Assembly: GCA_018825365.1 (NCBI GenBank)
Contig: JAHJEV010000003.1
Coordinates: 174,619-238,618 of the forward strand
Reading direction: 5' to 3'
Length of the DNA: 64,000 nt
DNA from: Patescibacteria group bacterium
Lineage (GTDB): Bacteria > Patescibacteriota > WWE3 > UBA101185 > UBA10185
Within the stretch, counting starts at the first letter, position 1; every line of letters begins with the position of its first letter. Shown piece after piece: positions 7,048 through 55,910 of this stretch. Below the pieces are notes generated by a model that was not told the DNA's origin, did not search any database, and was given only the letters and a program-made list of their open reading frames with translations. Made by a program: the position numbers and the translations under genes.

Positions 7048-7125
7048 GGGGTCGTAGCTCAGCTAGGTTAGAGCGCTGCTCTGTCACAGCAGAGGTCACG
7101 GGTTCGAATCCCGCCGGCCCCGCCA
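7048..7125 (+). tRNA. tRNA-Asp (anticodon GTC)
   Basis: Manual cloverleaf: acceptor GGGGTCG/CGGCCCC, D-arm GCTC-AGCTAGGTTA-GAGC, anticodon loop CTGTCAC, T-loop TTCGAAT, encoded CCA. An upstream promoter-like TTGACC-N17-TAGTAT lies at 6999-7027. Confidence 0.85.
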
Positions 7126-7183
7126 CGATAAATTGCCCGTTTCCTAAATGCTCTGTTTTTCCAATTTTGGTTAGGTTAAAAGA

Positions 7184-7230
7184 AAGAACCTCAGCTTTTT
7201 TGGTTTTTAAGCCTAAAAGTTGAGGTTCTT
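7184..7230 (-). terminator. rho-independent terminator hairpin
   Basis: Inverted repeat AAGAACCTCAGCTTTT / AAAAGTTGAGGTTCTT (16 bp, 1 mismatch) with a 15-nt loop. It sits 18 nt after the stop of the 7249..7623 gene and is T-rich downstream on the minus strand. Confidence 0.6.
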
Positions 7231-7248
7231 GATTTCTATGGCAGAAGG

Positions 7249-7623
7249 CTAAGCGAGATTGCAACCGCTGAGCATAATCATGCCACTGCCTGCGAGATCA
7301 TTTGCATCTTTTCCGGTTATACCGAGGGTTGCAGGAGTGATGACGTCCCAAAAGCCCAGCGCTTTGCCGACCGCGAACAGAATGAACGCTGTGCGCTGGC
7401 TTCCAATGACAGCACCTACTTCAATGTACGAGGGTCCTTCTGAAAGAGCGTGAGGTCCTTCGTACCCGGCGAGAAGCTGTTTCAGAGAATCCTTGTTCGC
7501 TTGAGCTTTCGGCGTGTTGACGGCCACCTTAAGATTGTGGATCTGTACAACAGTCGTGTCGGGGGAGTCTTCCTTTTCGCTGAGACAGCCCATCAAAAGA
7601 TCGTGTAACTTCTGAAGATCCAT
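7249..7623 (-). CDS. hypothetical protein; GC-rich (~50% vs ~35% locally), likely horizontally acquired
   Basis: Long ORF with strikingly elevated GC. The second Met (MDLQKLHDLL...) is preceded by GGAGGAA at RBS spacing, so the start is probably 7623 rather than 7635. No recognisable domain. Confidence 0.55.
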   Translation of the reverse strand: MDLQKLHDLLMGCLSEKEDSPDTTVVQIHNLKVAVNTPKAQANKDSLKQLLAGYEGPHALSEGPSYIEVGAVIGSQRTAFILFAVGKALGFWDVITPATLGITGKDANDLAGSGMIMLSGCNLA

Positions 7624-7777
7624 GTGTTCCTCCAATTCGTTGATTTGTAGAGCCTTATTTGGCTTTTATGCTACGCATTTTACCATAGTAATCTACTTAT
7701 GTAAACTACAGGTTAAGCGTGTTTTTACAGCACATTCCTTTCTAAAACAGCACTTTTGTTACTGGACACTGAGCTAA

Positions 7778-47692: not shown

Positions 47693-50689
47693 CTAAAACA
47701 TTTTTAAAGCTTGTGAGGTATACGATTCTTTGCATTTTTTAAGATTCTCAAGCGTTCCTTCAAACATAATCTTTCCACCTGCATCTCCGCCATCAGGCCC
47801 TAAATCTATCACCCAATCACAATTTCTAATCACATCCAAGTTGTGTTCTATCATAACAACCGTGTTTCCCCTTACAGTTAGTCTTTTGCATATCGCAATC
47901 AGATTTTCGAGATCAGCAAAATGAAGACCAGTTGTGGGTTCGTCAAGAATATAAAGAGTGCTTCCGGTTGATTTTTTTGATAACTCTAAGGCAAGTTTAA
48001 CCCTTTGAGCTTCTCCTCCTGAAAGAGTCGGAGCGGGCTGACCCAGTTTTATGTACCCCAAACCTACATCATTTAAAGTTTTAAGTTTTCTTCTTATCTG
48101 AGGAATATTTTCAAAAAATCTCAAAGCCTCCTCAACATTCATATCCAAAACATTAGCTATGTTTTTTCCTTTGTACTCAATTTCCAAAGCTTCTCTGTTG
48201 TATCTTTTTCCTTCACAGACTTCACATGTAACATAAACGTCCGGCATAAACTGCATTTCAATTTTTATCTGACCTTCTCCATTACACGCCTCACATCTAC
48301 CACCCTTCACATTAAAACTAAACCTACCCTGTTTGTAACCTCTAAGCCTCGCATCTTGAGTTTGAGAAAAAAGATCTCTTACAAAATCAAAAACTTTGGT
48401 GTATGTCGCGGGATTTGATTTTGGTGTCCTACCAATAGGACTTTGGTCTATTGCAATTACATTTGAAATGTTTTCAACTCCGGAAAGACTCTCGAATGTT
48501 TCCGCCTTTTGCTCAATTTTTAATCCAAATTCTTGTCTTAAAGCCAAATACAAAGTGTCCATTATCAAGGTTGATTTTCCGGATCCCGATACTCCCGTAA
48601 CACATGTAAATTTTCCAAGTGGAATATTTAAATCAATTTTTTTAAGATTTCTTCCGGAGGCTTTTTTTAAAGTTATGCATTTTCCTTCAACCTTCTTTTT
48701 GACTTTATGATTGGTTTCTTCCTCTAAAAGTTCATCTAACTCATCAGGCTTATAGGTCCCACCTTTTCCAACCATTAATTTTTTACAGAGGTATCTTCCG
48801 GTAAGAGAACCCGGGTTTTTCATTATTTCCTGTGGAGTTCCCTGCGCAATTATTTTTCCACCATGTTCCCCAGCCCCGGGTCCAAAATCAAAGATGTAGT
48901 CACTTTCAAGCATAGTTTCCGCATCATGTTCAACCACTACAACGGTATTTCCCAAATCTCTTAATTGGTGAAGTGTCCTTATTAGCTTTCCTTGGTCTCT
49001 TTGATGAAGACCTAATGACGGCTCATCTAAAACATACAAAACCCCGGACAAACCCGATCCGATTTGAGAGGCCAACCTTATTCTTTGAGCTTCCCCTCCC
49101 GAAAGTTCGGATGAAGAACGGCTTAGAGTCAAATATGCCAATCCCACATCAATTAAAAATTTAAGTCTGTAGTTTATTTCTTTAAGAATCGTACTCGCTA
49201 TTTTGTTTTCCCTTTCGGTAAGAAGATTCGGAAGATTTTTGCACCACGTCTGTGCATCGATTATTGAAAGCGACGTGATTTGAGAAATATTTTTATCATC
49301 TATAACAACGGACAGAGATTCCTTTTTGAGTCTCACGCCATTACAAACCGGGCAAAGTTCCTTTATCATGTATTTTTCAATCTCCCCTCTTATAAAATCT
49401 GACTCAGTTTCTTTAAATCTCCTTGCTAAGTTTGGAATAACCCCTTCATACTGAGCCTCAAAAGTTCTTCTTGCCCCATCCTGAGACCGATAAGAAACTT
49501 TAAACCTCCTACCTTTAACTCCATATAAAATTATTTGCCTGTGTTCACGGCTTAGCTCACCTATTGGGGTGTCTTGAGATATTCCGTACTCCAAAGATAC
49601 CGCTTGCACAACCTTTCCGGTCCAACTTGTGTGTTCAAAAAGTTTTGTCCACGGAAGCACCCCGCCCTCACTAATGGATAACCTTGGATTAATAACTAAG
49701 GATTCCTCAACTCTAAGCTGTGTTCCTATACCATCACACGCCACACAGGCTCCATGAGGAGAATTAAATGAAAATGTTCTTGGTTCAATATCTGGTAATG
49801 AAATGTTACAGGAAGGACAGGCAAAGTTTTCAGAAAATAAGTGGTCTTTGAATTTCTTTGGCCTGTCTTCAAATTCAAATGTTTTGTCTTTGACTAGTGT
49901 AACGATCGCACTTCCGTTGCTCATTCTTAGTGCTGTCTCAACAGACTGAAAAATAGCACTTTCAATTTCTTTTTTACCTTTTTCATCTTTAACTTTCTTA
50001 GAGTTTAAAATCTGCCTTGAAACTAACCCATCAACACTATGTTTATTTGTCTTAATAAGCTGAAAATCAGCACCCAATTCTCTTATATCTCCATCTATTC
50101 TTGCTCTCACAATTCCTTGCTTTCTGAGGTTTTCAAAAAGAGTAGAAAACTCACCTTTTCTATCTTTGATTATTGGGGAGAAGATAAAAAATCTAACGCC
50201 ATGCTCAGATTTAAAATCAGGTTCGGTAGACACAAGTTCAAGAATTTTCTGGGTTATTTCATCTAAACTTTGTCTTTTAATCTCTCTTCCACAATTAGGA
50301 CAGTGAGGATGACCAGCTCTTGCATACAAAAGTCTTAGGTAATCATAGATCTCGGTGATTGTCCCTACGGTTGATCTGGGATTTTTGGATGTAGTCTTTT
50401 GATCTATTGCAATTGCTGGTGATAAACCTTCTATTTTGTCTACATCAGGTTTATCCATTACGCCCAAAAATTGTCTTGCGTAGGCAGAAAGGCTCTCTAC
50501 ATATCTTCTTTGACCCTCAGCATAGATCGTGTCCATAGCAAGAGATGACTTTCCCGAACCTGAGACACCTGTGAAAACCACCATTTTGTTCTTTGGAATA
50601 TCAAGATCTATATTTTTAAGGTTGTGCTGTCTCGCGCCTCTTATCTGGATAAAGTTTAATGAATCTTTCATGACCAAATCATTGTACAA
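47693..50689 (-). CDS. uvrA: excinuclease ABC subunit A
   Basis: Two ABC ATPase modules ([15 protein letters not shown]), zinc-finger Cys clusters, 998 aa. Confidence 0.95.
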
Positions 50690-50734
50690 GATTACTTAAT
50701 AATTTGTCTACGGGTTTTATTTGGGTTATTGGGG

Positions 50735-50776
50735 CACAAAAAACGGACCCAGAGATTTTTCAATCTAAAGATCCGT
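50735..50776 (-). terminator. rho-independent terminator of the 50823..51398 gene
   Basis: Minus-strand RNA ACGGAUCUUUAGAUUGAAAAAUCUCUGGGUCCGU followed by UUUUUGUG. Confidence 0.55.
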
Positions 50777-50822
50777 GTATTTTTATTTACCAAGTGGCGG
50801 CTTGGTATCTAGCTAACTAATC

Positions 50823-51398
50823 TCATTCGTCTCTTCTAAACTTGAGTTTCCCGTTGACATATAGTGTGGACTCACCTGGAAGCACTCGAACACTTACAGG
50901 AGGAATTGCTAAAAGGGTTCCGAAAAGCCTTGCCTCCTCATCGTGAGCGAGCGATGCAATATCACGCTCTACCCTCTGAGGACTCATATTCCCTGCAATC
51001 GCAAGAGCTATGAGATTGTCTATTTCGTCAAGCAGCAGGTCGACCTGGTTTTCATGGATTGTGTGTTTTTTCCGAAAATCCTTCATGACCACAACCATTT
51101 GCGACTTAAACGATCCCCCAAGCTGTCGATTGAATGCCTTTCGGCAGAGCAACTTCCGATTAGCCCTCTCATGGTAACGATCAAAGATCCCCACAGTAAG
51201 CAGAAAGCTCGAAAAACCAAGGAGGAAGTTAAAGATCATTCCCCCCAACCAAGCCCTTGGCGATAAGGGTGATGTAATATCCCAGTTAACGCCAGCGCTG
51301 GCTAAGGTGACCACAGCAATGGCACCGAAGGTCAATCCACCTAAAACAGTAAACCACAGACTAGTGCCACGACTAACATAAAAACTGTTGGCTTTCAT
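50823..51398 (-). CDS. hypothetical 2-TM membrane protein; GC-rich (~50%), likely horizontally acquired
   Basis: 191 aa. TM1 is LWFTVLGGLTFGAIAVVTLASAGV and TM2 is WLGGMIFNFLLGFSSFLLTVGIF, followed by a ~120-aa charged cytoplasmic tail. Strong SD TAAGGAGA 8 nt upstream of the ATG. Confidence 0.65.
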   Translation of the reverse strand: MKANSFYVSRGTSLWFTVLGGLTFGAIAVVTLASAGVNWDITSPLSPRAWLGGMIFNFLLGFSSFLLTVGIFDRYHERANRKLLCRKAFNRQLGGSFKSQMVVVMKDFRKKHTIHENQVDLLLDEIDNLIALAIAGNMSPQRVERDIASLAHDEEARLFGTLLAIPPVSVRVLPGESTLYVNGKLKFRRDE

Positions 51399-51586
51399 TT
51401 TTTTTTCTCCTTATGAGCCTTATAGGCCATATTTTAAGAGCCGGAAAGGGGTCACGCCCCGTATGGCTCTGATACTCTACAGATTCCATCCGCCAATGGA
51501 AACCGCAGGCAAGCTGGGTTTTATTAACTAAAGCCCAAATTACCTGTGGTTTCCCTGTTTTTCAAAGTACCTAAAGAGCTACGGAC
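51399..51586 (-). ncRNA. GC-rich structured 5' leader (candidate cis-regulatory RNA / riboswitch of unknown class)
   Basis: ~190 nt between the predicted TSS and the start codon. Hairpins present: CCCUGU...ACAGGG, UUCCAU-UGGCGG-AUGGAA, GGGG-CGUGA-CCCC. AGAGCC/GGCUCU nests that last hairpin and competes with GCCAUA/UAUGGC next to the SD. Confidence 0.35.
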
Positions 51587-51592
51587 AGGGGC

Positions 51593-51621
51593 ATTGTAAC
51601 CCAAAACGGTACTTTTGTCAA
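51593..51621 (-). promoter_or_regulatory. consensus sigma70 promoter TTGACA-N17-TACAAT
   Basis: On the minus strand: -35 TTGACA at 51616-51621, 17-nt spacer, -10 TACAAT at 51593-51598. Confidence 0.6.
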
Positions 51622-51651
51622 TGCTATAGGGTAGCGCTAATGGGGTTCCTT

Positions 51652-53724
51652 TTATAATATTTTTCTTAACTCTCTAATCTTATCCCTAAGAATCGCAGCT
51701 TTTTCAAAATTCAAAACCTCAGCTTCATATTTCATTTCTTTCTCAAGGTTTTTAATGTATTTGTTAATCTCCTGCGGAGGCATTTGTTTGAAATCAATAT
51801 CTTTAAACTCATCTTTCTTCTTTCCTTCAAGCTGCTCCTCAATTTCCTCATCAATCAACTTTTCCCTAATTGGTTTTATAATCTGCTCGGGAGTTATCCC
51901 ATATTCCTCATTGTATTTAAGCTGAATGTTTCGCCTTCTTTCAACTTCATTAATAGCCCTGGTCATACTCCCCGTTACATTATCAGCATACATAACAACC
52001 TCGCCCTGAATATGTCTTGCGGCTCTTCCCATTGTTTGAATAAGCGAAGTTTGGGATCTTAAAAACCCTTCTCTATCGGCATCCAAAATAGCAACCAGGG
52101 AAACTTCCGGAAGATCCAACCCTTCTCTTAAAAGATTTATTCCCACCAAAACATCGTATTCGCCTTTCCTTAGGTTATCCAAAATATTTGTCCTTTCAAG
52201 AGTATCTATGTCTGAATGAAGATAAGTAACTTTAATTTCTTTTTCTATTAAATAGGCCGCAAGTTCCTCAGCCATTCTTTTTGTTAAGGTTGTAACCAAA
52301 ACCCTTTGATGTATGGACACTTTTTCCTCAATTCTTTTCAGCAAATCTTCTATCTGTCCTTTTGTTGGAAGAATTGTAACCTTTGGGTCAATGACCCCTG
52401 TAGGTCTCAAAAGAAGCTCAACTATGTTTCCTTTTGATTTTTCAATTTCCCACTCATCCGGAGTCGCACTAGCATAAACAGTCCTACCTGCCTTCTTTTC
52501 AAACTCCTCAAAGTTAAGAGGTCTATTATCAAAAGCTGATGGAAGTCTGAATCCATAATTTATTAAAGTTTCTTTTCTTGCGTGATCTCCGTTAAACATC
52601 CCCCTTATTTGAGGAACCGTCATGTGAGACTCATCTATTACCAAAAGATAGTCTTTGGGGAAAAACCCAAGAAGTGAATAAGGGGCATCTCCAGGTTTTC
52701 TGCCGTCAAAATATCTAGAGTAATTCTCAATTCCCTTGCAATAACCAAGCTCCTCCATCATTTCTATATCGTAATTAGTCCTTTGCTCAAGTCTGTATGC
52801 TTCAATCTGTTTTCCGGCATCTCTAAGTTCTTTCAAACGTATTTCCAAGTCTTTTTTAATATTCTCGATCGCGTCTTTTCTTTTCTCCTCAGCCGTGATG
52901 TAGTGTTTAGCAGGATATATGACTGTTACATATTGGTCACTTTGCAGTCTGTGTTCCAAATAATCCTGTTCATTCTGCACGTACTCTCTTGCATGTCCGC
53001 CTCTTCTGACTTCGGGAAGATTTTCAAGTGAAATCGTTGTCCCAGTCAAAGGATCAAAATGGGTAATATTCATTAATGTATCGTTGTATATTTCCAACCT
53101 CACGGCGTAATCTACGTAAGCGGGGAAAACATCTACTACTTCTCCCACGACTCTGTAAGTTCCTCTTTTGAAATCAAAATCAGATCTCTCGTAATGAGTT
53201 TGAGAAAGCCTTATTAAAAGATCCGCAAGCCTTAGTTTCATCCCTTTTTTGAGTTCGATCGCAACTTTACTGTACTCGGCGGGAGAACCGAGGTTATAAA
53301 TACAAGAAACTGACGAAACTACAATTACATCCTTTCTGGTCATAAGAGAAGTTGTTGCAGAAAGTCTAAGTTTATCTATTTTCTCGTTTATATCCGCATC
53401 TTTTTCTATATACGTGTCTGTAGAGGGAATATAACTTTCGGGTTGGTAGTAATCGTAGTAACTTACAAAATATTCAACAGCATTTTTAGGAAAAAATTCC
53501 CTAAATTCCTGATAAAGCTGAGCCGCTAACGTTTTGTTGTGGGAAATTACAAGCGTTGGCTTGTTAATATTTTTAATTACATTTGCTATTACGTAAGTTT
53601 TCCCACTACCAGTAACGCCCAGTAAAACTTGATCTTTAATATTTTTTTCCAGGTTTTCTGTGAGTTTTTCTATCGCCTGGGGCTGATCGCCTGTTGGTTT
53701 AAACGGAGCTTTTAAATTAAACAT
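51652..53724 (-). CDS. uvrB: excinuclease ABC subunit B
   Basis: Helicase motifs (GVTGSGKT, DESH), beta-hairpin region, C-terminal UvrB/UvrC-interaction motif. 690 aa. Confidence 0.95.
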   Translation of the reverse strand: MFNLKAPFKPTGDQPQAIEKLTENLEKNIKDQVLLGVTGSGKTYVIANVIKNINKPTLVISHNKTLAAQLYQEFREFFPKNAVEYFVSYYDYYQPESYIPSTDTYIEKDADINEKIDKLRLSATTSLMTRKDVIVVSSVSCIYNLGSPAEYSKVAIELKKGMKLRLADLLIRLSQTHYERSDFDFKRGTYRVVGEVVDVFPAYVDYAVRLEIYNDTLMNITHFDPLTGTTISLENLPEVRRGGHAREYVQNEQDYLEHRLQSDQYVTVIYPAKHYITAEEKRKDAIENIKKDLEIRLKELRDAGKQIEAYRLEQRTNYDIEMMEELGYCKGIENYSRYFDGRKPGDAPYSLLGFFPKDYLLVIDESHMTVPQIRGMFNGDHARKETLINYGFRLPSAFDNRPLNFEEFEKKAGRTVYASATPDEWEIEKSKGNIVELLLRPTGVIDPKVTILPTKGQIEDLLKRIEEKVSIHQRVLVTTLTKRMAEELAAYLIEKEIKVTYLHSDIDTLERTNILDNLRKGEYDVLVGINLLREGLDLPEVSLVAILDADREGFLRSQTSLIQTMGRAARHIQGEVVMYADNVTGSMTRAINEVERRRNIQLKYNEEYGITPEQIIKPIREKLIDEEIEEQLEGKKKDEFKDIDFKQMPPQEINKYIKNLEKEMKYEAEVLNFEKAAILRDKIRELRKIL

Positions 53725-53804: not shown

Positions 53805-55139
53805 CTATCGGTTAGAACCTTTTAATAACCACTCTCGTTTGGTAAGCGTAGACTCCCTCAAATCTCCTGATAAAGAAAGCAATATTTTTGTGATTCTTGC
53901 TATATCGTCAACTATCTCCTGTTCGTTTACATTTGGTTGCACTGATGATGCAAACCTCCCGGTATATTCCACCTCCATTTCATAGAGCTTTCTTTCCGAA
54001 GTTTGACAAATATCGAAAGAAATGTGATATATCCTTCTTGTTTCCGGATTTTCAACCCAAAAAGCTTTTCTGTACCGATATAGCTCTCCCTGTAATCTAC
54101 CTTTTTTGAGTATCTCGGGTTGTATATTTTCGAATCTCTGTTTAGTCTCGGATCTTTTTAAAATACATTTAAGATTTTCAGAGTTACTACATACTTTTAC
54201 TTTCCCTTTTCTTACAACACTCATGTAGTCGGGACGCAGTAATACTTTGAATGATTCTTTGGAGTTTTTATAATACTGGTTGATACTAGACGACTCAAAA
54301 ACGTGTTTAAAATGGCTGGGTATCTTATACGCGTATTTTCCAGACCTAAGAGCATTAAATACTAACGGGAACACCGACTCAGTTTTTGATACCAGCTTTG
54401 ATTCTATCTCGCACTCTTTTAGTTCTTTTAGAAAAAATATACTATCCTTTTTATACATATACTTACAAAGTAAATTGTAAGCTTGGCCTTTTTTGGAAAT
54501 CACTGGAATGACTTTTAGATCCGATTTTAATTTTTCGATGAGACCAATAAGTTTTTTTGAGTTTCCTTTGGTCTTTATTTCTAACCTTGGATAAGGCTCC
54601 GTGCCAATCAACACGGGATTTTTTTGTTTGTTGTCGAAATAAAAGTATCTGGTATTTTTGTCTATGGAGAATCTTGCGTACACGCCTTTTCCGTCATTAT
54701 AAACATAATGTTGACGTTTATACTTAAGCATAAAAAACGGTCTTAATGTCATTATTTTTTTACCGTATTTTTTATTTGCGATGTCTAAAGCCTCTTTTAG
54801 AGTCACTCTTATACGAGTTTTGTATTTTAAATCATCCCTTCTTTCTTTAATGTCAAAAAACCATTTTCCTCGAAATGTTCTGGGTTCTGACTTGTGTTTA
54901 GCCGGAAGATACCTTCTGGTCTTCAAAGTCAGAAGAAAAGGCAAACTGTGATCGTCGTTTGAGAAGTATATTGTCTGAACCACCTCATTATCGGAAAATT
55001 TATGTCGCTCTAAATTTCGTTTTAATAAACCAATAAAATCGGGGGAGAACGGGATATACCTCTCCTCTTTTCTTTTAGGCAGGTCTGTTTTAATGGTTAT
55101 TATTTCATGCATAATGACGGCTTCTACGCCGAGAAACAT
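53805..55139 (-). CDS. hypothetical protein, possibly tandem triphosphate-tunnel (VTC-like + CYTH-like) domains
   Basis: N-terminal half has VQTIYFSNDDHSLPF...LKTRRY, resembling the VTC-domain YFD...RxRxY blocks. C-terminal half has ExExK-like ECEIESK and an acidic EMEVEY strand as in CYTH enzymes. Inferred from motifs only. Confidence 0.35.
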   Translation of the reverse strand: MFLGVEAVIMHEIITIKTDLPKRKEERYIPFSPDFIGLLKRNLERHKFSDNEVVQTIYFSNDDHSLPFLLTLKTRRYLPAKHKSEPRTFRGKWFFDIKERRDDLKYKTRIRVTLKEALDIANKKYGKKIMTLRPFFMLKYKRQHYVYNDGKGVYARFSIDKNTRYFYFDNKQKNPVLIGTEPYPRLEIKTKGNSKKLIGLIEKLKSDLKVIPVISKKGQAYNLLCKYMYKKDSIFFLKELKECEIESKLVSKTESVFPLVFNALRSGKYAYKIPSHFKHVFESSSINQYYKNSKESFKVLLRPDYMSVVRKGKVKVCSNSENLKCILKRSETKQRFENIQPEILKKGRLQGELYRYRKAFWVENPETRRIYHISFDICQTSERKLYEMEVEYTGRFASSVQPNVNEQEIVDDIARITKILLSLSGDLRESTLTKREWLLKGSNR

Positions 55140-55824: not shown

Positions 55825-55873
55825 TGAGTAATTTTAATTGAATACGAAAACCTAAGCAAGAAACCCCTTGACA

Positions 55874-55910
55874 TCTTCGTGTATTGTTCGGTATCGTATA
55901 CATACGAAGA
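55874..55910. promoter_or_regulatory. palindromic candidate operator (TCTTCGT-N-TCGTATACATACGA-AGA) overlapping the lexA promoter
   Basis: -35 TTGACA at 55868-55873. The 14-bp palindrome TCGTATACATACGA at 55894-55907 is nested within 7-bp arms TCTTCGT/ACGAAGA, overlapping the -10 region upstream of lexA. Confidence 0.4.

Follow-up and report, generated by a model that had tools for sequence, protein, structure and literature searches.

A single gene for a small membrane protein lies between uvrB and uvrA in a stretch of 64,000 nucleotides from an uncultured Patescibacteria group bacterium of the WWE3 lineage (contig JAHJEV010000003.1, positions 174,619 to 238,618; "the window", whose coordinates are used for all positions unless a relative is named). 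Together with its promoter, leader and terminator the gene forms a unit on the minus strand, and all features of the unit described below lie on that strand. The unit is an independently transcribed gene at a fixed position, its product belongs to a protein family, conserved RNA structure is present on both sides of a variable open reading frame (ORF), and the ORF has undergone cassette exchange. From this we propose, with moderate confidence, a post-transcriptionally controlled, variable membrane-protein locus in which the 5' and 3' untranslated regions (UTRs) of the mRNA form a kissing interaction. The conserved RNA structure of leader and 3' UTR is the most distinctive feature of the unit and does not appear in the original prediction, a model's annotation of the window's letters, which described a self-contained monocistronic unit between uvrB and uvrA. 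All elements listed there were found at the places given for them.

The 5' leader (51399..51586; about 188 nt counted from an inferred transcription start) is far better conserved than the ORF. It folds with a minimum free energy (MFE) of -68.5 kcal/mol, corresponding to a z-score of -4.1 against shuffled sequences. The leader alignment shows the following order of elements: a nearly invariant unpaired stretch GGUACUUUGAAAA (GGUACYUUGAAAA, 51559..51571) on the 5' side, a long hairpin P1, the invariant CCAUUGGCGGAUGG, a variable linker, two hairpins P3 and P4, and the Shine-Dalgarno sequence (SD). P1 (51498..51554), a hairpin of 23 bp, was recognized as an inverted repeat and by RNAalifold. In 10 sequences 98.6–100% of its cells are paired, 4 pairs are changed on both sides and many G-C/G-U switches occur. 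These switches are tolerated by the 5' strand, whereas the 3' strand is almost fixed; it is changed once, in L097, and the change is compensated. The G-U pairs and the scores of a covariance model, 104 bits for the sense and 45 bits for the antisense strand, fix the strand of the RNA. The apex of P1 is lengthened in L087 by a 12-nt tandem duplication, two copies of TTGGGTTTTAAG (L087 4838..4861).

P3 (51437..51470) was taken from single-sequence folds and consists of an outer stem AGAGCC/GGCUCU, an inner stem GGGG/CCCC and a conserved internal loop UUUCC. Between cassette types 4 of 5 outer pairs are changed on both sides, and L097 has GUGCU/AGCAC at this place. P4 (51416..51428) is a small hairpin just 5' of the SD. 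It reads GGCCU/AGGCU in the window and GGCC/GGCC, GGCA/UGCC, GUC/GAC or AGGU/ACCU (the last in L097) in relatives, with 2 of 4 pairs changed on both sides between cassette types. MAFFT failed to align P3 and P4, and the registers underlying these counts were made by hand.

On the other side of the ORF the 3' UTR contains a hairpin ACCAAG-CCGCCA-CUUGGU (50789..50806) with the loop CCGCCA at 50800..50795. L093 and L097 have UUGAG/CUCAA in place of its stem, 3 pairs being changed on both sides. As pairing is retained in the rebuilt stem and the loop is left untouched, we consider the hairpin to be real. It is followed by the intrinsic terminator that the original prediction had listed (50738..50775), formed by a hairpin (50775..50744) and T6, in which stem pairing is kept in 10 copies and 2 pairs are changed on both sides; a simple terminator scanner missed this hairpin, whose loop exceeds 8 nt. 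We assessed P1, the 3' hairpin, the terminator and a helix between the leader and 3' loops together in an alignment of 10 sequences, with the leader core joined to the 3' UTR. Standard pairs were found in 98.3% of cells, compared to 28–50% when the partners were slid by 1–3 columns. Pairs changed on both sides numbered 10 against 3.6 ± 1.5 in shuffles, and 0 of 500 shuffles reached 10.

The covariance model detected the leader motif only at this locus when the 64-kb window and other loci were searched, and the leader pattern was absent from IMG/VR. At the gathering score Rfam assigned only 4 tRNAs to the window, and nothing meaningful was obtained at E<=10 within 50650..51700. Text searches of the literature returned no description of such a motif in bacteria of the Candidate Phyla Radiation (CPR).

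The loop of the 3' hairpin has an exact complement in the leader. The 6-mer UGGCGG (51495..51490) would form the loop of a candidate hairpin P2, UUCCAU-UGGCGG-AUGGAA (51484..51501), which is invariant in 10 copies except for two loop changes. The 6-mer and the 3' loop CCGCCA are fully complementary (6/6 pairs) in 9 of 10 copies. L087 has altered both partners, to UGGUGG in the leader and CCACCA in the 3' loop, so that U-A takes the place of a central C-G pair. L090, the only homologue outside the uvr context, has kept P3/P4, the SD and the ORF, and both P1/P2 and the 3' hairpin are missing. Pairing of the leader loop with the 3' loop in a kissing interaction is in our view rather probable. Alternatively, the leader could be a stand-alone riboswitch-like or protein-binding cis-regulator, the 3' hairpin a separate stability element and the complementarity of the loops incidental, a possibility that we regard as doubtful. 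It would agree with the covariation of P1, P3 and P4, which is independent of any 5'-3' contact, with the fact that only one loop pair covaries, and with a 28-nt stretch comprising the 3' strand of P1 and the UGGCGG region, whose near invariance suggests a sequence-specific partner. However, perfect complementarity of two given 6-nt loops has a prior chance of only about 1 in 4096, both loops stayed fixed while the stem around the 3' loop was replaced, the two sides changed together in L087, and both elements are missing from L090; nor does any Rfam family match the leader.

The complementary 6-mer is located about 80 nt upstream of the SD, and the 3' UTR does not pair with the SD region. The SD itself, AAGGAG (51407..51412), lies 8 nt before the ATG, in line with the strong SD predicted originally, and is kept in 8 of 10 copies. 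Some MFE folds pair the CYUU of the unpaired 5' stretch with the AAGG of the SD; this CYUU and the UUUCC internal loop of P3 are candidate anti-SD elements, for which covariation was not seen. Two further candidates were rejected. Pairing of a GCUCUUU segment with the SD, present in the MFE fold of the window, involves a 5' segment that is not conserved in relatives, and the AUG within GGAUGG opens ORFs that differ in length and sequence in each copy, which speaks against a conserved leader peptide.

During comparison of the copies the ORF behaved differently from its surroundings. Its identity falls to 17–41% or becomes undetectable, and this drop is confined to the region between start and stop codons. 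L086 and L087 are 78–97% identical in uvrB, leader, 3' UTR and uvrA but 38–60% identical in the ORF, with the switch located at the ATG and just past the stop codon; 54–60% of flanking synonymous sites differ between them. For L083 and L092 identities of 83–98% were determined in the flanking genes and 3' UTR, 65–73% in the leader and 30–53% in the ORF. Flanking genes of the compared pairs show a proportion of synonymous differences (pS) of 0.43–0.60 and a nonsynonymous divergence (dN) of 0.004–0.04, the ORF a dN of 0.7–1.1. Since the leader remains about 90% identical although the flanks have reached a pS of 0.43–0.60, it must be under strong purifying selection.

The window's own unit combines sequences of different affinity. 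Its uvrB and uvrA proteins are closest to those of L092 and L083 (93–97%), and the flanks are 83–100% identical. The P3/P4 segment of the leader, in contrast, is 95% identical to L086 and 52% to L083, and the protein is 41% identical to that of L086 and 22–23% to those of the near relatives. Since the flanks and the ORF with P3/P4 point to different lineages, the unit is a mosaic whose switch point falls within the conserved P1/P2 segment; homologous exchange of cassettes across lineages accounts best for this pattern.

Several observations weigh against the proposed reading. The copies comprise only 10 related sequences from a narrow clade, and the shuffle control ignores their relatedness. 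The case for the kissing contact consists of one compensatory event, one co-absence and the invariance of the loops, and in L089 the leader reads UGGCGA, which creates a terminal mismatch with the 3' loop. The stem of P2 is invariant and shares positions with the base of P1; P2 can therefore be regarded as a candidate only, in whose loop the leader 6-mer may lie. Both ends of the mRNA are inferred. In single-sequence MFE folds the SD is not consistently sequestered and in most of them it is free, therefore simple SD occlusion is not evident. Finally, flanking genes even of "close" relatives have already reached a synonymous divergence (dS) of 0.65–1.2, and with flank dS near 1 much of the ORF divergence could result from rapid evolution in place. 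Evolution in place cannot explain the incongruence between flanks and cassette, and it is this incongruence that argues for exchange. Saturation of synonymous sites was also considered as proof of ancient alleles and was dropped in view of the flank dS.

Copies of the unit were gathered via relatives of UvrB, an exhaustive HMMER search, a profile search, a scan of Joint Genome Institute metagenomes with a 25-nt leader pattern, and the covariance model, whose E-values are rough owing to shortened calibration. The unit is located directly upstream of uvrA in ten other WWE3 lineages (L083, L086/L091, L087, L089, L092, L093, L094, L095, L097). In L083, with a UvrB identity of 95%, promoter and 3' hairpin of the unit are the same, the leader is recognizably similar, and an SD, an ORF of 180 aa with two transmembrane (TM) helices and a terminator are present; the encoded protein is only 27% identical to that of the window over 94 residues. 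Extra genes are found between unit and uvrB in L094 and L097. The unit is absent from L084/L085, L096, L098 and L003. Presence was recorded at UvrB identities of 71, 78, 81 and 93–95%, absence at 73, 76, 78 and 88%. Being present in ten lineages and absent from at least four others, the unit is patchily distributed.

In L084/L085 (UvrB 88%) uvrA follows uvrB at a distance of 70 nt and the uvrA promoter sequence is retained. The empty site in L084 (L084 8077..8095) reads GACTTTTGAAAAATA, which resembles the conserved ACTTTGAAAAA of the leader and could be either a deletion remnant or an AT-rich chance match. The original prediction had suggested checking whether uvrA and uvrB are directly adjacent in relatives that lack the insert. 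This was indeed observed in the relative with 88% UvrB identity, the unit being at the same place in ten loci. Its interpretation as an acquired module agrees with the atypical GC content, the presence and absence in relatives and the mosaic, but not in the sense of an isolated one-off foreign insert, as ten other WWE3 loci carry the unit.

The interval after uvrB also harbors other genes. L096, L098 and L003, which lack the unit, have the gene of the class A penicillin-binding protein PBP1 (transglycosylase and transpeptidase) at this place, so the gap between uvrB and uvrA is generally variable in the group. The closest GTDB genome, with PBP1 after uvrB, was uninformative on synteny. An ORF of 444 aa without Pfam match (53805..55139, minus strand) lies between a gene with a VTT domain and uvrB. 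Its place is empty in L084/L085, where uvrB follows 39 nt after the VTT-domain gene, and is taken by an unrelated ORF of 145 aa in L083; it is a second variable slot beside the unit.

The ORF of the unit (50823..51398) encodes a protein of 191 aa. According to AlphaFold2 (AF2) modeling and hydropathy its two TM helices are followed by a three-helix bundle in the cytoplasm and a beta-hairpin at the C-terminus; HMMER placed it in a family. Hydrophobic segments comprise residues 12–37 and 49–73, and the 25 residues following the second one contain 7 K/R versus 2 D/E, consistent with a helical hairpin that has both termini inside. With an alignment of 8 sequences AF2 gave a mean predicted local distance difference test score (pLDDT) of 78, with values of >=90 for residues 80–160, and the modeled helices coincide with the hydrophobic segments, so that hydropathy and model agree with the two N-terminal TM helices of the original prediction. 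The second TM helix extends into a long helix, against which two further helices pack, and a small beta-sheet comes after these. The single-sequence model (pLDDT 54) was too poor and was not used.

A HMMER search of 1.84 billion representatives yielded 4 homologues of 176–188 aa with E-values from 2e-26 to 4e-11, and a profile search added 2. In a word-indexed protein search the protein matched only itself, the exact sequence being present on three Logan contigs from two samples. Residues G95, D107, R109, Q118, L122, E155 and G160 are nearly invariant in the family. The L092 protein is homologous according to hhalign (96.8% probability), and those of L093 and L097 have kept the architecture while homology is not detectable. 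Among three close type-B alleles dN/dS ranges between 0.24 and 0.52, which indicates a translated gene under purifying but relaxed selection. By these comparisons the family is tiny, uncharacterized and fast-diverging.

That the ORF is spurious and the GC-rich stretch represents one long non-coding RNA can be dismissed almost with certainty. Islands of high GC in AT-rich genomes often prove to be structured RNAs, and the initial search had matched the protein only to itself; however, ORFs of the same length and architecture exist in relatives despite massive divergence of the DNA, dN/dS is below 1, the SD has the right spacing, GC is higher at first than at second codon positions, and the AF2 model is confident.

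No known family was recognized in the protein, which bears out the earlier statement that no motif was recognizable; Rfam and NCBIfam were blank as well. Pfam gave no match, SLATT/DUF4231 included, for the window protein at E<=10 and for all 10 family members at E<=1, PADLOC gave 0 families at E<=10, Abi included, and the best E-value in PHROGs was 0.31. A sequence profile search of the PDB returned only marginal ubiquitin-repeat noise, and fold searches produced no specific match. No match was found by tblastn against 50,697 phage records, and no endolysin gene neighbors the unit. The C-terminal PPVSVRVLPGESTLYVNGKLKF (residues 136–187, 50823..50990, minus strand) resembles the first two strands of Ig repeats of the Big_2 type. 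Three giant surface proteins of 1500–2300 aa match only over the last approximately 50 residues of the protein, with 5–7 repeats each and whole-library E-values from 1e-6 to 5e-4. As the match covers two beta-strands only and is too short, homology to an Ig-repeat domain was rejected.

These negative results bear on the proposal, made originally from the two TM helices and the helical tail, that the protein resembles SLATT-like or abortive-infection effectors, holin-like families being named for comparison. A horizontally acquired defense effector of the abortive-infection or SLATT-like type with two TM helices, which would permeabilize the membrane on a phage signal, seems very unlikely to us. 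SLATT/DUF4231 proteins are likewise small and carry a helical soluble part attached to two TM helices, and the patchy presence, atypical GC, cassette exchange and second variable slot next door would suit such an effector, as would tight control at the RNA level if the protein were toxic. Yet no SLATT/DUF4231, Abi or holin profile matches even at E<=10, there is neither a specific fold match nor a phage homologue, and the neighbors are uvrB and uvrA, with no sensor or nucleotide-signaling partner gene, such as those of SMODS, SLOG or CBASS-like systems, in any of 11 loci. Moreover, the slot always holds the same unit with its UTRs, whereas defense hotspots hold unrelated systems.

The neighborhood also raises the question of a role in DNA damage. 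lexA lies 2.3–4.6 kb away and is divergent from uvrB-unit-uvrA, giving the gene order lexA-uvrB-(unit)-uvrA-...-uvrC. A membrane protein of the damage response or excision repair, for instance an SOS-type division inhibitor like YneA, SosA, ChiZ or SidA kept next to uvrA for joint use, is unlikely in our estimate, though less so than the defense effector. The SOS division inhibitors known so far are small membrane proteins that evolve fast and have their genes close to lexA, and the unit likewise specifies a small, lineage-specific, fast-diverging membrane protein, strictly adjacent to uvrA in 10 loci within the lexA-uvr cluster. YneA, SosA, ChiZ and SidA are LexA-regulated and mostly have one TM helix and an extracytoplasmic domain, while the soluble domain of the unit's protein is predicted to be cytoplasmic. 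The unit has its own constitutive-looking consensus promoter and its own terminator, and close relatives live without it. At the unit promoter neither a GAAC-N4-GTTC box nor a repeat or palindrome shared with the lexA promoter was found, a weak test given that the LexA motif of WWE3 is not known. The lexA promoter regions of two divergent lineages (window 55866..55910; L086 1393..1470) contain conserved CGAA-N7-CGAA and TTCG-N14-CGAA repeats, which may be candidate half-sites of a WWE3 LexA operator. Neither repeat pattern shows enrichment in the window, and neither was detected at other uvr promoters.

Type I toxin mRNAs such as hok/sok offer another comparison. Like the unit they encode a membrane protein behind a long structured leader, with a 5'-3' contact that could keep the mRNA inert. 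Hok-type toxins have fewer than 60 aa, a single TM helix and an antisense RNA as antitoxin, and their mRNA ends engage in fold-back inhibition; the protein of the unit has 191 aa, two TM helices and a folded cytoplasmic domain, and an antisense gene was not seen, although no search aimed at it was made. Since the defining features that were tested were not found, we conclude that the unit is not a member of the SLATT, Abi, holin or type I toxin groups. In its pattern of divergence it resembles Borrelia ospC and the staphylococcal agr specificity region, where a drop of identity is confined to a coding cassette with conserved flanks and alleles run off the genome tree. Those loci encode surface antigens or signaling specificity determinants with known agents of selection, and the conserved flanks of the unit, unlike theirs, are functional RNA.

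The 5'-3' UTR interactions of icaR and hbs appear to be the nearest functional analogues. The icaR mRNA of S. aureus contains a UCCCCUG motif that base-pairs with the SD region itself, thereby preventing initiation and generating a substrate for RNase III (PMC3868564). In B. subtilis hbs mRNA a 14-bp interaction between 5' and 3' UTR modulates RNase Y cleavage (PMC5737220). The unit shares with hbs a structured 5' UTR, a strong SD and, if the proposed pairing holds, a long-range contact to the 3' UTR, by which the leader could be shielded from an endonuclease. The hbs contact is a linear 14-bp duplex in the mRNA of a housekeeping protein, while the unit has short putative kissing loops and a variable accessory gene. 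Compared to icaR it has a 6-bp loop-loop complementarity far upstream of the SD and no sequence relationship. From both it thus differs in geometry (loop-loop, away from the SD), organism and controlled gene. In the unit complementarity of the UTRs is maintained in evolution, as seen in 9 of 10 copies and in the double change of L087.

Taken together, we envisage the following mechanism. The unit is an independently transcribed gene of a WWE3 sub-group, kept at a fixed chromosomal slot just upstream of uvrA. Its product is predicted to be a small inner-membrane protein built of a helical hairpin, a cytoplasmic three-helix bundle and a short beta-hairpin. Purifying selection acts strongly on the non-coding parts of the mRNA, namely the leader, the 3' hairpin and the terminator. 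A 6-bp UGGCGG-CCGCCA kissing complex may join the two mRNA ends, and this contact together with the leader structure could set mRNA stability and/or translation and thereby restrict production of the membrane protein to particular conditions. At the same time divergent coding cassettes might be swapped by way of homology arms provided by the conserved UTRs and the flanking repair genes.

Tight control, variability and patchiness argue for a membrane effector whose expression is conditional and which is possibly harmful or interaction-specific, and against a housekeeping protein. A connection with DNA damage is suggested by the synteny with uvrA and the lexA-uvr cluster, although no operator was found, and a role in interaction or defense by variability with patchiness, although a defense signature is missing. 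More speculatively, and rather improbably, the kissing-loop mRNA could gate a hypervariable effector, possibly of self/non-self, host-interaction or anti-phage specificity in an episymbiotic CPR bacterium, with the UTRs doubling as recombination arms.

To our knowledge almost no cis-regulatory RNAs have been described in CPR/Patescibacteria, and we know of only few natural 5'-3' UTR contacts in bacterial mRNAs, those of icaR and hbs among them. The leader adds a new candidate motif of structured RNA, well supported by covariation, from this group. If true, a contact through kissing loops, with a compensatory change found in nature, would widen the class of 5'-3' UTR contacts, and a combined RNA switch and allele-exchange locus would have no described counterpart. 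The much higher conservation of the UTRs than of the protein, with identity collapsing right at start and stop codons, is an unusual pattern and suggests strong selection on expression and diversifying or relaxed selection on the product. The product also defines a new family of small membrane proteins, very rare and associated with the uvrA locus.

The remaining elements define the boundaries of the unit. uvrB (51652..53724, minus strand), whose best matches are from candidate division WWE3 and Patescibacteria, ends 30 nt before the -35 hexamer. A conserved CCTATAGCA element (51622..51630) abuts this hexamer and shows few changes in all ten other copies. The sigma-70-type promoter TTGACA-17-TACAAT (51593..51621), present as had been claimed, agrees with the consensus at 11 of 12 positions, and hexamers and spacing are the same in relatives; it is one of only 2 promoter-like sites counted within 2.5 kb, versus 5.2 expected from shuffles. 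From the -10 hexamer to the ATG the distance is 194 nt with 45% GC, close to the leader of about 190 nt given originally. Downstream and outside of the unit lies the separate promoter of uvrA, TAGACA-18-TACAAT (50681..50710, minus strand). The ORF listing starts uvrA at a TTG (50689), while all relatives conserve an ATG at 50671 (MKDSLNF). This ATG is located only 9 nt past the -10 TACAAT (50686..50681) and lacks an SD, so that the uvrA mRNA would be nearly leaderless.

The unit stands out in base composition. Its ORF has 46.9% GC and a GC content at third codon positions (GC3) of 0.47, the highest values among 45 long ORFs of the window, the others ranging between 0.28–0.43 for GC and 0.23–0.42 for GC3. 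The contrast put forward in the original prediction is thus real, but its figures of about 50% against about 35% were too large, as we measured 47% for the ORF and a mean of 38.0% for the window. Most copies in relatives are also enriched in GC against their own genome (ORFs 0.40–0.47, loci 0.37–0.40). A higher-GC donor genome was therefore rejected as the source of the composition; raised GC is a property of the unit in most relatives rather than the mark of a recent foreign donor. According to the original prediction, a conserved position with native composition in relatives would have spoken against an acquired module; this applies in part, as the position is conserved but the composition is not native. 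Around the unit there are no terminal inverted repeats or target duplications but short chance repeats only, no tRNA or tmRNA was found at its site, and blastn and the covariance model detected no second copy elsewhere in the 64-kb window.

Two observations concern other sites. UvrB of L092 (L092 1020..4670) has 1216 aa and contains an intein (Intein_splicing, LAGLIDADG_3, HTH_3) after approximately residue 43, near the ATP-binding motif. In the window, a second GC-rich patch (about 46% in 600-nt windows) extends over 7130..7640 directly after tRNA-Asp (7048..7125) and holds an ORF of 128 aa (7249..7635, minus strand) without match in Pfam, PHROGs or NCBIfam; the patch may be a small insertion at the tRNA gene.

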